Below are positions 22,709-29,464 of a stretch of 64,000 bases of DNA, piece after piece; the first letter of the stretch is position 1; every line of letters starts with the position of its first letter. The position numbers were made by a program, and so were the translations under genes. The stretch comes from Lachnospiraceae bacterium (GTDB taxonomy: Bacteria > Bacillota > Clostridia > Lachnospirales > Lachnospiraceae): contig JAKSRS010000002.1 of the NCBI GenBank assembly GCA_024403515.1, positions 22,388 through 86,387 on the forward strand. Reading direction: 5' to 3'. Below the pieces are notes generated by a model. That model was not told the DNA's origin. It searched no databases and saw nothing but the letters and a program-made list of their open reading frames with translations.

Positions 22709-24961
22709 TTGGCACACGATTATTCATATTACGAAGATGAAGTGAGAGACAACTTCTACATACCGAGTATGGGAAAGCGTTCATGGGCTATGCAGATGGA
22801 CGTTTTAGATAAGGTGCGCGAAATTTGCGATAGACATGGCCTTAAGTGGTTTGCGGACTACGGAACTCTTCTTGGCTGCATTCGCCATGGTGGTTTCATT
22901 CCTTGGGATGATGATCTTGATATCTGTATGTTAAGAGATGATTATGATAAATTCATCGAGGTGGCGGCATCTGAGCTTCCGTCTACATATTTGATTTTAG
23001 ATTCTTTTACTGATTTCAGGCACACAAACTTTGTAACCAGAGTTGTTAACTGTGGAGAAATCTCCTTTTCGAGTGATTTCCTGGCTGAAAACAACGGTTA
23101 TCCTTTTGTAAGCGGAATTGATATATTCCCCCTTGATTATCTTTATCCTGATAATGACAGGGAAGAAGAAAGAAAGAAACGCGCCAAGGACTTATTCGAC
23201 TACGCTGAACGTGTTAAATCTGATAAATCCATAAGTGCACATGAAGCATATTCCACTGCACGAAAGATTGCAGGCGTTGAACTTGATAAGTCGATTCCCA
23301 TTGAAGCTGCTTTTATAAGGGCAATAACTAAGATTTATAAAGAGGCGCCCAAAGAAGGTGCAACTCATGTCGGTTCCATGTTCTTTTGGACACGTTATAA
23401 CTTTCAAAAGTATAATATTAAATTTTTTGAAAAGGAGGCCATAATGCCATTTGAGGACGGCTTTGTTAACGTTCCTCTTGGATATACAAGTAAACTTCAA
23501 ACTGATTATCGTGGTTGGGAAAAGATTTACAAACAAGGCGGTATGCATGAGTATCCCTGCTATGGATCCCAGGAAACGATTCTTGAAAAGCACTATAAAG
23601 GTAAGCTTCCCTATAGGTATTATTATGATGAAGCTATCCTTAGTGAGGATACTGACCGCGAAAAGAGTAATAAAGATAAATGTCTTGAGTATTTAAGTCT
23701 TATGCTTAAGGCTCACACATATTTTATGGGCATGTACGAGACCGGCAAGATAGAAGAGGCTGCAGAAATCTTGCAGGCTTGCCAGAACATGGCCATCTCA
23801 GCCGGAAGTCTGATTGAATTTTGTAATGGTGAAGGCAGCGATGAAGTTAAACTTTTAGAAAGCTACTGCGAGGCGATTTACGCTATTCACTCCAAACTTT
23901 TAGGAGGGGTGAATCTTTCTATTACAGACACTGATATAGATTCTTTAAACCAGCTTATTAACTATGTCTTTAACAGTATTCAAAATAACTTTTTGAAAAA
24001 GACCATAGTTTTTATACCATATAAGGCTTCAGATTTTTCATATATTCGTGGAATGTATAATCGTTACATAAATGATCCTTTGTGGAATGTAAAGGTTATG
24101 CCGGTTCCATATTTTTACAAAAATTTCGACGGAACCAACATTGAAGAACATTTCGAATTCGATGAGTTTCCTAAAGACATTACGCTTACAAATTATAACG
24201 AGGTTGATCTGGCGTCCCTGCATGCCGACGTAATAGTCACCATGAATCCTTTTGATGAGTTTCATAGTGCTGTTACGCTTTATCCTTTCTTTTATTCCAA
24301 AAACCTCAAGGCCAAGACTGAAAAGCTGATTGTAGCCTATAATCTTTCTTTTGACGCACCTTCATTAACGGATGAAAAGATGTGCTCAAACTGCTCGCAG
24401 TTTGTCATCTCATCCGGTGTAATGCGTGGCGATGAGGTGGTGGTAAAATCGCAGGCCTGGAAGGACTTTTTCATAGGTCTATTGGATGATAAGTGTGGAA
24501 CTATTACCCATGATATCTGGGATGAGAAGATTGTTGTGATGGAAGAAACTGATTGCACGTTTAATCAGTGCGATGACGGAACTTCTGATGCGCATAATGG
24601 TCTCAAGGAGCTTCTTTTCTACATAAACTTTTCGGAGTTTTTCCTTGGACCTACGAAAATGATGGATAAGATTTCGCGCGTTTTAGACGATTTTGAGAAG
24701 AATTCTCATGATATGAGTTTTATCTGGAAGGCTGAAGAAACTTTACTTGATAACGTAAAACTTGCCTGTCCTGAGCACTACGATAGATTTAAAGGTCTTG
24801 TCGACAGATTCAAGGCTATTGAAAATGCCAGATGGGATGAAGGTCGTTTTAACGAGTTGGATTTTACAAATATACGAGGTTACTATGGAAACAAGGGGCT
24901 TTACATGCACCTTTGTGAGGAACGTCACTTACCGATTATGTTACTAAATGCTGACGTTTAA
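22709..24961 (+). CDS. LicD-family phosphotransferase with long C-terminal extension
   Basis: TTG start; YGTLLGCIRHGGFIPWDDDLDI, IDIFPLD; C-terminal helical region plus IVFIPYK...MPVPY...VTMNPFD domain. Confidence 0.88.
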   Translation: MAHDYSYYEDEVRDNFYIPSMGKRSWAMQMDVLDKVREICDRHGLKWFADYGTLLGCIRHGGFIPWDDDLDICMLRDDYDKFIEVAASELPSTYLILDSFTDFRHTNFVTRVVNCGEISFSSDFLAENNGYPFVSGIDIFPLDYLYPDNDREEERKKRAKDLFDYAERVKSDKSISAHEAYSTARKIAGVELDKSIPIEAAFIRAITKIYKEAPKEGATHVGSMFFWTRYNFQKYNIKFFEKEAIMPFEDGFVNVPLGYTSKLQTDYRGWEKIYKQGGMHEYPCYGSQETILEKHYKGKLPYRYYYDEAILSEDTDREKSNKDKCLEYLSLMLKAHTYFMGMYETGKIEEAAEILQACQNMAISAGSLIEFCNGEGSDEVKLLESYCEAIYAIHSKLLGGVNLSITDTDIDSLNQLINYVFNSIQNNFLKKTIVFIPYKASDFSYIRGMYNRYINDPLWNVKVMPVPYFYKNFDGTNIEEHFEFDEFPKDITLTNYNEVDLASLHADVIVTMNPFDEFHSAVTLYPFFYSKNLKAKTEKLIVAYNLSFDAPSLTDEKMCSNCSQFVISSGVMRGDEVVVKSQAWKDFFIGLLDDKCGTITHDIWDEKIVVMEETDCTFNQCDDGTSDAHNGLKELLFYINFSEFFLGPTKMMDKISRVLDDFEKNSHDMSFIWKAEETLLDNVKLACPEHYDRFKGLVDRFKAIENARWDEGRFNELDFTNIRGYYGNKGLYMHLCEERHLPIMLLNADV

Positions 24962-26700: not shown

Positions 26701-27240
26701 ATGAAAGAAATATTATTGTTAGGTGACTCATTAAGAATGGGTTATGAACCGATTGTTCGTAAAAATTTAGAAGGTATAGCCGGAGTAAGTGGACCCGAGG
26801 AAAATGGAAGATGGGCAGGATATACATTAAACTCGCTTCGTTTCTGGATTCCTTCCCTTCCTAAGCCTGATATTATTCACTGGAATAGCGGTTTGTGGGA
26901 TTTGGGTGACGACTATAATCTTGGCCGACCTTTTTCACTACCCGAGGAATATGAATCAGCATTAGAAAGAATGGTTACCGTGTGCGGTAAACTCTTTCCT
27001 GAAGCCAAACTTATTATGGCAACTACGATGCCTACTGATAATCCGGATTCATCGGATATTGAGGCTTATAACGAGATTTTTAAGGCTGTAGCTAAGCGCC
27101 ACAATATTGAAGTGAACGATCTGTTTCCTATCGTGAAAAATGATCCTTCCTTAATCGGACCTGATCATATTCATCTTACGGAAGAAGGCTTTAAGATTGT
27201 TGGAGATAGAGTCACAGAAGTGATTAAAAAATATCTGTAA
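26701..27240 (+). CDS. SGNH/GDSL hydrolase
   Basis: LLGDSL, WNSGLWD, DHIH. Confidence 0.88.
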   Translation: MKEILLLGDSLRMGYEPIVRKNLEGIAGVSGPEENGRWAGYTLNSLRFWIPSLPKPDIIHWNSGLWDLGDDYNLGRPFSLPEEYESALERMVTVCGKLFPEAKLIMATTMPTDNPDSSDIEAYNEIFKAVAKRHNIEVNDLFPIVKNDPSLIGPDHIHLTEEGFKIVGDRVTEVIKKYL

Positions 27241-27244
27241 ATAA

Positions 27245-27292
27245 AAGTACCGGTACAAACTGATGCAGCGCATCACATTTGAATCGGTACTT
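27245..27292. terminator. Bidirectional terminator hairpin
   Basis: aagtaccg...caaa.tgatgc/gcatca.tttg...cggtactt nested stem between convergent genes. Confidence 0.7.
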
Positions 27293-27315
27293 ATTTGTTA
27301 ATATGTTTAATTTAC

Positions 27316-27504
27316 TTATTTGGTTGAAGAGAGCTTCTTGACTTCTTCTTCGTCACATTCAACTATCTCGGAGATCTCTGCAGTGGAGAAACCTTTTAAA
27401 AGAAGCTTTGTGATAATATCGCGACGTGCTTGTTCCTGGCCTTGCTTTGCACCATCATCAAAGCCCATTCGATATTTCATTCGATATTTCATTTCTAGTG
27501 TCAC
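27316..27504 (-). CDS. Predicted intragenic small protein (RpnS-like antitoxin, 62 aa), in frame with Rpn
   Basis: On the minus strand, tGGAGGgacaaccaaGTG puts a strong SD 9 nt before an in-frame GTG at 27504. Confidence 0.55.
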   Translation of the reverse strand: MTLEMKYRMKYRMGFDDGAKQGQEQARRDIITKLLLKGFSTAEISEIVECDEEEVKKLSSTK

Positions 27505-28158
27505 TTGGTTGTCCCTCCAATCTCTGTCGTTATTGTATTTCATTACTTCCTGGTGCAAGCCTCTGGTAAAATCATCAGTGGTCTTGCCTGTACGTAAGTA
27601 TTCTAGCACATTAGTAAGATTATTATCAATACACTCATTATCGCCATTAATGTTAAGAAATACTGACGAAACTCCGTCGCCGAGCCTAAGTTCAGCGTGA
27701 TTTACACAACAAGATTCAAAAGTATAAATACTCTCACCCAGACCAAAAGGGTCGAACGTGCAGATAAAGATAACTATATTTTTTCCGAGTTTTTCGAAGT
27801 CCACCCCCTTCCTAAGTAAATACCCATCCATCTCCGAATGATAATACCGCGTTCTTTTTGCTAGAAATGGTTCATAAGCTGTCTGCATCTCGATATCGTA
27901 GGAATTTCCGTCCGTATCCTTGACGTAGATGTCAAGGCGTACTCCTCGCGATTTGATTCTTCTTCGGATACTTTTTTGTGAGGTGACAACCTCGATCTCG
28001 GAGATCTCAATCTTTAGGACACGTTGCAGAAATTCTTTGCACCTGTCCCTGTCTTCCATTACCGTGCAGAACATAAAATCGTCAGTAATGGGGATGAAAC
28101 CGTCATTAAATTTTGTTTTTCTCAAATTACCTCCTTGGAGACAGATATTCCCTGTCAT
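27316..28158 (-). CDS. Rpn-family (PD-(D/E)XK, recombination-promoting nuclease/putative transposase) protein
   Basis: DDFMF..VM, GVRLDIYV, YDIEMQ, KRTRYY, IFICTFDPF; C-terminal G..G...helix-turn-helix tail. Confidence 0.9.
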   Translation of the reverse strand: MTGNICLQGGNLRKTKFNDGFIPITDDFMFCTVMEDRDRCKEFLQRVLKIEISEIEVVTSQKSIRRRIKSRGVRLDIYVKDTDGNSYDIEMQTAYEPFLAKRTRYYHSEMDGYLLRKGVDFEKLGKNIVIFICTFDPFGLGESIYTFESCCVNHAELRLGDGVSSVFLNINGDNECIDNNLTNVLEYLRTGKTTDDFTRGLHQEVMKYNNDRDWRDNQVTLEMKYRMKYRMGFDDGAKQGQEQARRDIITKLLLKGFSTAEISEIVECDEEEVKKLSSTK

Positions 28159-28297
28159 ATTTAAAATTTAGGAATTGAAAGCAAAGAATAAAAGAATAAA
28201 GATAAATAGATTATTTGTTGAATATATATAGAAATATTGCTTTCAAAAGAAATATTATCACAACATCTTCACCCATACAACTTAGTTTTCTAATCTA

Positions 28298-28326
28298 TTG
28301 ACCGCAAATGCTCAAACGGGTATGCT
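28298..28326 (+). promoter_or_regulatory. SigA-type promoter
   Basis: TTGACC, 17 nt, TATGCT upstream of the OYE gene. Confidence 0.55.
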
Positions 28327-28378
28327 CAATCTATGGGTTGAAAAACTATATGAAATTCACAAGCATAATGGAGGATAT

Positions 28379-29464
28379 ATGGTTACATTAGATACACCAA
28401 TCAAGATAGGAAATTTTACAGTTAAAAACAGAATAACATTTGCACCGACAGTAAAGTTTGATTTTACAGATGATTCGGGTTTGGTTACAGATAAACTAGT
28501 TGAGCATTACAAAGAAAGAGCACTAGGCGGAGCTGGATTGATATGCGTTGAAGCTACAGCTGTTTTACCGGGTGGACGCTTTGGAAAGAACCATATGGGC
28601 CTTTGGTCGGATGAACAGATAGAAGGTCATAAAAGAATTACAAAGGCTTGTCATGATGCCAATGCGGTAGTGATAATTCAGCTCAATCACGCAGGCTATG
28701 TATGTAACGGTGACTGCGGACCGCATGTAGGACCTTCAGAGATTGAAATTGATAGCTATGCCGGGAAATATACAACGCATGCTCTTACACTTGATGAAGT
28801 GCATGAATACCAGAAAGCTTATGTTGACGCGGCAGTAAGAGCTCAAAAGGCCGGTTACGACGGAATACAGCTTCATGGTTGCCATGGCTATCTTATTAAT
28901 CAGTTCGTATCACCTACCAACAATTTTAGAACGGACGAATATGGTGGAAATGCCAAAAACCGCGCAAGATTTGCCAGTGAAATTATTAGTAGTATCCGAG
29001 ACCTTTGTGGACCTGATTTTCTTATTTCAGTTAGAACCACAGGCTTTGATAAAACAGTAGAAGATGCAATAGAGGTTGCCGAAGAATATGTAAACGCGGG
29101 CTGTGATTATCTTCAGGTATCTGCCGGAATGACTTCTTTTGACGAGATAGATGATTTTAAGGACCCTCAGATCGATAAATTCCCAAGCCTCGGATGCAGA
29201 TTTAAGGACCATTTCAAGGGAAGAGTGCCGGTATCCAATGTCGGAGGTATCTTAACACCCGAGCGTGCCAAGTACTTCATTGAAAATGAATATGTAGATA
29301 CAGTTGACCTTGCAAGGGCTATACTTGCAGACCCTGATTTTCCTAACGCAGCGATAACTGGCGGAAACTATACAAAATGTTTCCAGTGCAAGGCCTGCCA
29401 GTATGGACCATTTACTAACCATGTTTGCCCTGCAGAAATGGTTAGAAAGAAAGCGGAGGTTTAA
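28379..29464 (+). CDS. NADH:flavin oxidoreductase (Old Yellow Enzyme family)
   Basis: KNRITFAP, GGAGLICVEA, IQLNHAG, GYDGIQLHGCHGYLINQF, RTDEYGG..NRARF; GGAGG RBS before ATG 28379. Confidence 0.92.
   Translation: MVTLDTPIKIGNFTVKNRITFAPTVKFDFTDDSGLVTDKLVEHYKERALGGAGLICVEATAVLPGGRFGKNHMGLWSDEQIEGHKRITKACHDANAVVIIQLNHAGYVCNGDCGPHVGPSEIEIDSYAGKYTTHALTLDEVHEYQKAYVDAAVRAQKAGYDGIQLHGCHGYLINQFVSPTNNFRTDEYGGNAKNRARFASEIISSIRDLCGPDFLISVRTTGFDKTVEDAIEVAEEYVNAGCDYLQVSAGMTSFDEIDDFKDPQIDKFPSLGCRFKDHFKGRVPVSNVGGILTPERAKYFIENEYVDTVDLARAILADPDFPNAAITGGNYTKCFQCKACQYGPFTNHVCPAEMVRKKAEV

Follow-up and report, generated by a model that had tools for sequence, protein, structure and literature searches.

A Lachnospiraceae Rpn-family nuclease gene that likely contains its own antitoxin, with a GTG internal start and natural alleles

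In a contig of a Lachnospiraceae bacterium (GenBank assembly GCA_024403515.1, contig JAKSRS010000002.1), we examined a 64,000-nucleotide stretch, hereafter the window, and focused on one minus-strand gene of the Rpn nuclease family, here called rpn. This gene is likely to be a gene-within-a-gene toxin-antitoxin module of the RpnL/RpnS type, in which the full-length nuclease (RpnL) would be the toxin and a short C-terminal product from an internal start (RpnS) the antitoxin. A first, sequence-only reading of this DNA had proposed such a toxin with an intragenic antitoxin, and the proposal is supported by the family of the protein, a conserved internal Shine-Dalgarno (SD) sequence and start codon, the predicted shape of the C-terminal tail and repeat variation among alleles. 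The assignment to the Rpn family made in that reading was also borne out by matches to TIGR01784 and PF12784 and by intact D/E-x-Q catalytic residues. We infer the translation of RpnS, toxicity, neutralisation and phage defence by analogy with characterised Rpn systems.

The internal site reads on the minus strand GAT TGG AGG GAC AAC CAA GTG ACA CTA GAA ATG AAA TAT CGA ATG AAA TAT CGA ATG GGC. Its Trp-Arg codons, TGG AGG, form a perfect GGAGG, which is separated by the 9-nt spacer GACAACCAA (27513..27505) from a GTG lying in frame with the 280-codon open reading frame (ORF) 27316..28158. The nested frame comprises 62 codons, ends at 27316 and would give the product (V/M)TLEMKYRMKYRMGFDDG...SSTK. 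The GGAGG, its 9-nt spacing, the in-frame GTG at 27504 and the 62-aa product had all been named in the sequence-only reading, and the coordinates and the peptide proved correct when the sequence was read again. Of the 805 internal in-frame ATG, GTG and TTG codons in window ORFs that reach 200 aa or more, no more than three are preceded by a perfect GGAGG ending 5-12 nt upstream, and the rpn GTG is one of them. In the long ORFs of the window, GTG accounts for 11% of Val codons and AGG for 13% of Arg codons, so that the codon choices at the internal site are not the default ones. The site is thus unusual for the window; one site by itself is no proof of function.

One alternative is that rpn has a single product, and that both the GGAGG and the Met/Val codon arise incidentally from a conserved protein motif, D-W-R-D/E-x-x-M-T-L-E-M-K, which the full-length nuclease requires. 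As protein, this motif is strongly conserved (an alignment of 51 homologues shows no or almost no variation at W214, R215, M219 and T220), Trp has one codon only, and AGA/AGG is the commonest type of Arg codon (54%) in these AT-rich genes. On the other hand, the codon choice exceeds what the protein would need. The Val219 column holds Met in 115 of the 120 best homologues (113 found by pattern search and two, P0023 and P0026, by eye), Val in three and Leu in two, in agreement with the earlier remark that homologues typically have Met here, and DNA was retrieved for every non-Met exception. All Val cases are GTG, in four lineages (the window gene with its allele L067, L031/L032, L054 and L056), and all Leu cases are TTG, in two lineages (L053/L068 and L057). 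GTG makes up 26.5% of Val codons and TTG 19% of Leu codons in the rpn homologue genes, and the chance of finding a start-competent codon in all four Val and both Leu lineages is about 2e-4 if the lineages are independent. The Arg codon after Trp is AGG at 11 of 16 loci (69%, vs a background of 18% in the same genes) and AGA at the other five, with no CGN codon at any of them. Moreover, distant relatives with different residues still spell an SD sequence at this place, V-W-K-E-D being encoded with AAGGAGG, E-K-R-R-E with GGAGG and I-F-R-S-D with AGGAG.

Energies calculated for pairing and folding of the mRNA point the same way. The duplex with the anti-SD sequence has a mean energy of -8.4 kcal/mol at the internal-start column (22 loci) vs -3.4 kcal/mol at 333 other in-frame start-type codons, and values of -8 kcal/mol or lower are reached by 59% of the loci vs 5% of the control codons. 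In 60-nt windows, the predicted mRNA structure at the internal start of rpn (-2.2 kcal/mol) is the weakest of 33 windows in the gene, and the mean over 24 non-identical loci of the family is -5.5 kcal/mol at this position vs approximately -8.3 kcal/mol elsewhere; both in rpn and in the 24-locus mean, the structure minimum is centred on the internal start. In addition, the small product of Clostridioides difficile Rpn, a characterised relative, depended on a predicted ribosome-binding site (RBS) and an internal start (PMC10400941). Codon usage and predicted mRNA features indicate that the SD sequence and a start-competent codon are selected at the nucleotide level and not merely as protein, and we consider a single product improbable.

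It may also be asked whether a small protein is made from another start codon, either ATG 27492 (Met223, 58 aa, beginning MKYRMKYR) or ATG 27543 (Met206, 75 aa). ATG initiates more strongly than GTG, Met223 (the M of LEMK) is widely conserved too, and with Met206 as the initiator the MKYR tandem would begin 17 residues downstream. However, ATG 27492 sits 21 nt after the GGAGG, beyond the usual SD spacing, and the conserved column that has an SD sequence at 9 nt is that of the GTG. The Met206 column is not conserved, with Ile, Glu or Gln in the closest homologues, and its sole SD-like string, AGGAAG, ends 2 nt before the codon; ATG 27543 was rejected as an internal start because of the unconserved column and the too-near SD-like string. 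We regard a start other than the GTG as unlikely.

A short rpnS transcript from an internal promoter is possible. A promoter-like site (Table 1) precedes the GTG, with 10 of 12 consensus matches and an extended -10; it is the top site in a 1.3-kb scan, yet the regional total of such sites equals that of shuffled sequences, and the evidence for a promoter, being a consensus match only, is weak. The divergent allele described below has a similar element, TTGATT-18-TGcTAAAAT. A search of 27000..28600 for structured RNAs gave no Rfam match.

The full-length product looks like an intact Rpn-family PD-(D/E)XK nuclease. It matches NCBIfam TIGR01784 with 123.7 bits (cut-off 52.1, E 1.1e-35) over model positions 1-273 of 273, a model that also scores above its cut-off in an Escherichia coli control genome, and it matches Pfam PF12784 (PDDEXK_2) at residues 35-180 (E 2.6e-14). 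In terms of sequence families, rpn is thus a member of a sister Pfam family (PF12784) of the E. coli-type PF04754, within the one NCBIfam model TIGR01784. In 51 homologues no variation occurs at R74, D76, R102, R104, Y105, Y106 and D111, and almost none at D27, E90 and Q92. By position and spacing, D27, D76, E90, Q92 and R102 (numbering of the 280-aa frame) align with D11, D63, E82, Q84 and R94 of RpnA; the E90-M-Q92 motif is present, and the E-x-Q is followed by an R at Q+10 with the same spacing as in RpnA. Mutation of these five RpnA residues changed or abolished recombination, toxicity and SOS phenotypes (PMC5350276). It is because the catalytic pattern corresponds to that of RpnA that the nuclease appears intact.

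The longest ORF opens at ATG 28158 (280 aa) and has no SD sequence there. The gene-caller product (P0001) has 269 aa and starts at TTG 28125, and both other intact alleles (L067 and L068, see below) retain an identical AAGGAGGTAATTTG ahead of this full-length start. An AlphaFold2 model of the full-length protein, built with an alignment, had a mean predicted local distance difference test score of 82.8, and a fold search with it returned only weak matches of the restriction-endonuclease type (E 0.02-0.4), namely EcoT38I, EndoMS/NucS and the nuclease domain of Avs3. Inside rpn, the 14-nt sequence ATCTCGGAGATCTC was also observed as a perfect direct repeat, at 27365-27378 and 27995-28008. Its two copies are 630 nt (210 codons) apart and in frame, each encodes E-I-S-E-I, and the chance expectation of such a repeat is low for 1.7 kb; recombination between them would remove most of the nuclease in frame.

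The C-terminal tail, that is, the predicted RpnS, is predicted to form one long helix and, after it, two short ones, a topology like that described for RpnA-S. AlphaFold2 placed the three helices of the full-length model at residues 221-254, 259-266 and 270-278, and those of the 62-aa tail folded alone at 3-36, 41-47 and 52-59. RpnA-S is a bundle of three helices, the first of them long, and is related to HTH (helix-turn-helix) proteins (PMC10400941; PDB 7TH0). The rpn tail gives sub-threshold matches to the Pfam HTH families Sigma70_r4_2, PhyR sigma-like and GerE, and its likeness to resolvase helix E plus HTH has non-significant scores. The weak fold matches of the full-length and 62-aa models are compatible with the Rpn reading and are not diagnostic of it.

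Further evidence came from other alleles of this locus. When proteins are clustered at 90% identity, the cluster of the rpn protein and that of its nearest relative each hold one further member, and the corresponding contigs were retrieved; samples holding these alleles are ERR3486523, ERZ27247136 and SRR10505694. All share the locus order LicD - symporter - GDSL hydrolase - rpn - OYE reductase - esterase, and the identity of their flanks, taken in 100-nt blocks, is 93-100% and in most blocks at least 97%; the alleles are therefore conspecific. The window allele (269 aa, GGAGG-9-GTG) has the four-residue units GFDD GAKQ GQEQ in its G-x-x-x region. Allele L067 (285 aa, also GGAGG-9-GTG) is 48 nt longer there and has four extra G-x-x-x units (GTKQ GYED GSKY GREL GLKQ GQEQ), and allele L068 (273 aa, GGAGG-9-TTG) is 12 nt longer (QGLM), as is L053. 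The three intact alleles thus differ by 0, 1 or 4 four-residue units, beginning 13 residues after the internal start. Four-residue repeats that lie 8-20 residues after the initiator and vary in whole units are a signature of RpnS (PMC10400941), and the variation among these conspecific alleles fits this hallmark. Many homologues show clear E/K-G-x-x arrays at the same place in the tail, as do the two other Rpn-like genes of the genome (see below). Ahead of the variable units lies the exact 12-nt tandem encoding MKYR MKYR M, which is already diverged in the other allele (MKYE MKYY). Measured against the family consensus, the tandem leaves the net length unaltered.

Allele L068 (L068:2501-3322) differs from the window allele in another way as well. 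A cassette of approximately 380 nt, at 27446-27830 of the window, was observed to be strongly diverged, and the remainder of the gene and its flanks are 98-100% identical. In codons 98-225 the number of synonymous substitutions per site (dS) is about 1.9, the number of nonsynonymous substitutions per site (dN) is 0.27 and amino-acid identity is 61%, vs a dS of 0.016 in codons 1-98 and of 0.076 in the last 42 codons. On this pattern of substitutions, the divergent segment is a recombinational cassette swap. The cassette takes in the nuclease's C-terminal half, the internal SD sequence with its start codon and RpnS residues 1-17, with its 3' breakpoint at the dodecamer-repeat region, which suggests that repeat-associated recombination may have swapped a nuclease half and an antitoxin N-terminus as one co-adapted unit. 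Since the probable start codons are weak for RpnL (TTG) and RpnS (GTG or TTG) alike, start-codon strength might tune the ratio of toxin to antitoxin. That the locus shows how Rpn modules diversify, by cassette exchange and weak start codons, can be put forward as a tentative and rather doubtful suggestion.

A shortened copy, L053:603-1265 (Logan SRR10505694), was also observed. It is an L068-type allele lacking 311 nt (window 27952-28262), which comprise the promoter and approximately the first 58 codons, and its catalytic Q is changed to H (DIEMQ to DIEMH); the GGAGG-9 nt-TTG and the tail are intact. L053 may represent a remnant that retains just the antitoxin; alternatively, it may be artefactual, as it comes from one short contig.

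A quite different explanation would be that rpn encodes a mobile-element transposase or recombination nuclease, that the HTH-like tail is its DNA-binding domain and that the strain differences are neutral slippage. The database name of the protein is indeed 'putative transposase', the tail shows the non-significant HTH and resolvase resemblances given above, and rpn was inserted as a single gene. In two genomes of the same genus (G006 and G020), the OYE gene lies 15-25 nt after the GDSL gene with no rpn between them. From this empty site, the segment of approximately 1.1 kb that carries rpn (Table 1) is a single-gene insertion on the opposite strand, and from the direct succession of the two genes in related species, the insertion split a probable operon. 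However, no terminal repeats of the insertion sequence (IS) type or defined ends were found at the insertion. The inverted repeats there measure only 12-14 nt, which is chance level, and at least one arm of each pair lies inside rpn or a neighbouring gene; an IS or transposon identity was rejected for want of terminal repeats. The sequence-only reading, which had reported no flanking inverted repeats and had disfavoured transposition, is upheld in the first respect by these short, gene-internal pairs, and in the second by the empty site in related species together with the absence of terminal repeats. To our knowledge, no autonomous transposase with the PD-(D/E)XK Rpn fold exists, and transposition would leave the selected SD sequence and start codon and the open mRNA structure unexplained. 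We judge the transposase explanation very unlikely.

Zhong et al. (2023; PMC10400941) described Rpn genes as non-transposon single-gene insertions and found nothing to indicate that they transpose. Homologues of rpn occur in 14 of 61 related genomes, none above 36% identity, and the same-genus genomes contain no orthologue (best identity 36%); within the genome collection, the nearest relative is 59% identical. By these comparisons, the insertion pattern of rpn (single gene, patchy, without terminal repeats) is that of Zhong et al.

The closest characterised counterparts are RpnA-E of E. coli and the plasmid-borne RpnP2, which act as toxin-antitoxin and antiphage systems of the RpnL/RpnS gene-within-gene kind (Kingston et al., 2017, PMC5350276; Zhong et al., 2023, PMC10400941). 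Like them, rpn has a PD-(D/E)XK nuclease with the D...E-x-Q...R pattern within TIGR01784, an in-frame internal RBS and start before a C-terminal tail, a tail with one long and two short helices (predicted for rpn), four-residue units in the first helix whose number varies between strains, and the status of a single-gene insertion without terminal repeats. It differs from them in its Pfam domain, which is PF12784, whereas that of E. coli Rpn is PF04754 (Transposase_31; PMC5350276), and its tail has no detectable sequence similarity to RpnA-S (PDB 7TH0) or DUF4351. The internal start is GTG in rpn and TTG in the sister allele, while that of RpnA is a Met codon, M244 (PMC10400941). Unlike E. coli Rpn, rpn probably uses TTG for its full-length start and lies outside any defence island.

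A Gram-positive parallel is the Rpn of C. difficile (Clostridia), for which RpnS was detected in E. coli and was lost on mutation of the predicted RBS and internal translation initiation site (iTIS) (PMC10400941). By its published description, it shares with rpn an SD-driven internal start and strain-varying four-residue repeats. Unstudied homologues from Lachnospiraceae, Acetatifactor and Treponema (e.g., L021-L032 and P0003-P0031; 41-59% identity to rpn) have the same D-W-R-D/E-x-x-M-T-L-E-M-K junction, in which TGG AGR forms an SD sequence 9 nt before the start, followed by E/K-G-x-x repeats. Most of them use ATG and have more repeat units, and the rpn tail is among the shortest.

Several observations weigh against an RpnL/RpnS-type module. 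The codon statistics treat lineages as independent and ignore shared ancestry, and part of the DNA conservation is confounded because the W-R-D/E-x-x-M motif is conserved as protein too. GTG initiates more weakly than the ATG found in most relatives. A promoter-like match at the equivalent distance was found at only three of 25 homologous loci, so its position is not conserved in the family. At the domain level, PF12784 was the sole Pfam hit at E<=0.01, with no match to PF04754 (Transposase_31/YhgA-like). Comparison of the tail with PDB chains, RpnA-S (7TH0) included, gave no match by phmmer or with a 51-sequence profile, and the rpn tail and three homologous tails gave no match to DUF4351 (PF14261) even at E<=10; annotation of the tail as DUF4351 applies in some species only (PMC10400941). 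Foldseek with the 62-aa model found generic HTH matches only (E>0.7), and 7TH0 was not in the top 50. With no sequence match and only generic HTH fold matches, structural membership of the tail is argued from topology only.

The surroundings of rpn also count against it. No defence-island context was found around the gene; its neighbours are metabolic genes, encoding LicD, a sodium:solute symporter, a GDSL hydrolase, an OYE reductase, an esterase and a beta-helix protein. PADLOC gave no defence match except REase_II at 12.8 bits (E 0.012) and no Rpn-named match in PADLOC-DB, which is dated 2023. Given metabolic neighbours and no defence island, a phage-defence role is argued from family analogy only.

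With these points taken into account, we still favour an RpnL/RpnS-type module, which would work as follows. Ribosomes entering from the 5' end, probably at TTG 28125 behind AAGGAGGT, would make the full-length DNA endonuclease RpnL. Other ribosomes would bind the internal GGAGG (27518..27514), start at GTG 27504 and yield the last 62 residues as RpnS. By analogy with RpnA, RpnB, RpnP2 and C. difficile Rpn, the first helix of RpnS would pair with the identical segment of RpnL and hold the nuclease inactive until it is released by some trigger, possibly infection by a phage. Which RpnS fits which RpnL would be set by how many four-residue units this helix contains.

Table 1. Features of the rpn locus in the window (minus strand, -; TRF, Tandem Repeats Finder)
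Feature	Position	Strand	Remark
Single-gene insertion, approximately 1.1 kb	27241..28360		Flanked by the genes for the GDSL hydrolase and the OYE reductase
rpnL, full-length Rpn-family nuclease ORF	27316..28125	-	Probable TTG start 28125, 269 aa
SD sequence AAGGAGGT of the full-length protein	28129..28136	-	GGAGG core ends 4 nt before TTG (28125..28123)
PD-(D/E)XK nuclease core	27619..28056	-	Pfam match, residues 35-180
Promoter-like site TTGATA-18 nt-TGcTAGAAT	27600..27629	-	-10 ends 95 nt upstream of internal GTG
Internal SD sequence GGAGG	27514..27518	-	Formed by Trp-Arg codons TGG AGG
Internal start GTG (iTIS)	27502..27504	-	Val219 in the 280-aa frame
rpnS, nested frame, predicted antitoxin	27316..27504	-	62 codons + stop
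Exact 12-nt tandem, 2.3 copies (MKYR MKYR M)	27466..27493	-	TRF period 12, 100% matches; RpnS residues 5-13
G-x-x-x four-residue unit region (GFDD GAKQ GQEQ)	27430..27465	-	RpnS residues 14-25; site of the 12-nt/48-nt strain differences

The region upstream of rpn (28000..28450) has a GC content of 0.29-0.31. The ORF of the neighbouring OYE reductase was listed from TTG 28298; it probably starts at ATG 28379, which lies behind a GGAGG. OYE relatives align only from 28379, and gene calling in the L067 and L068 alleles yields a product of 361 aa.

Two further Rpn-like genes were observed in the same genome, at L002:605-1489 (contig C76) and at L060:1441-2382 on the minus strand (contig C1). They encode 294 and 313 aa and have their own repeats, EGKA x2 and KEGIQLGR x3, and in both an SD-like GAGG is followed after 9-11 nt by a Met, with the repeats 14-18 residues further on. 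With rpn included, the three Rpn-like genes found here thus all show an SD-like GAGG or GGAGG 9-11 nt upstream of a start codon that precedes their own repeats by approximately 14-18 residues.

In the long ORFs of the window, the two SD-preceded internal codons other than the rpn GTG are ATG 23444 and GTG 7902, both on the plus strand and in frame. The former stands behind a perfect AAGGAGG (GAAAAGGAGGCCATAATG) within a LicD-family ORF of 750 aa (22709-24961), with 505 codons remaining, and could reflect a second product or two genes mis-joined. The latter stands behind GAGGAGG, with 71 codons left in an ORF of 431 aa.

As a case of the 'antitoxin inside toxin gene' design, which was described in E. 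coli in 2023, the gene is well supported but ordinary. It reveals no new mechanism, and the GTG/TTG internal start and the natural alleles are useful details. For the Rpn family, it provides a clean Gram-positive case of this intragenic toxin-antitoxin design from the gut or rumen (Lachnospiraceae), in the PF12784 branch. For this branch it also suggests an annotation rule, namely that TGG AGR serves as the SD sequence with a start-competent codon 9 nt later, where GTG or TTG may replace ATG. Finally, the allele series at one locus (0, +1 and +4 units, one swapped cassette and one 5'-truncated remnant) would offer a natural test set for the published idea that repeat number sets the specificity between RpnL and RpnS.

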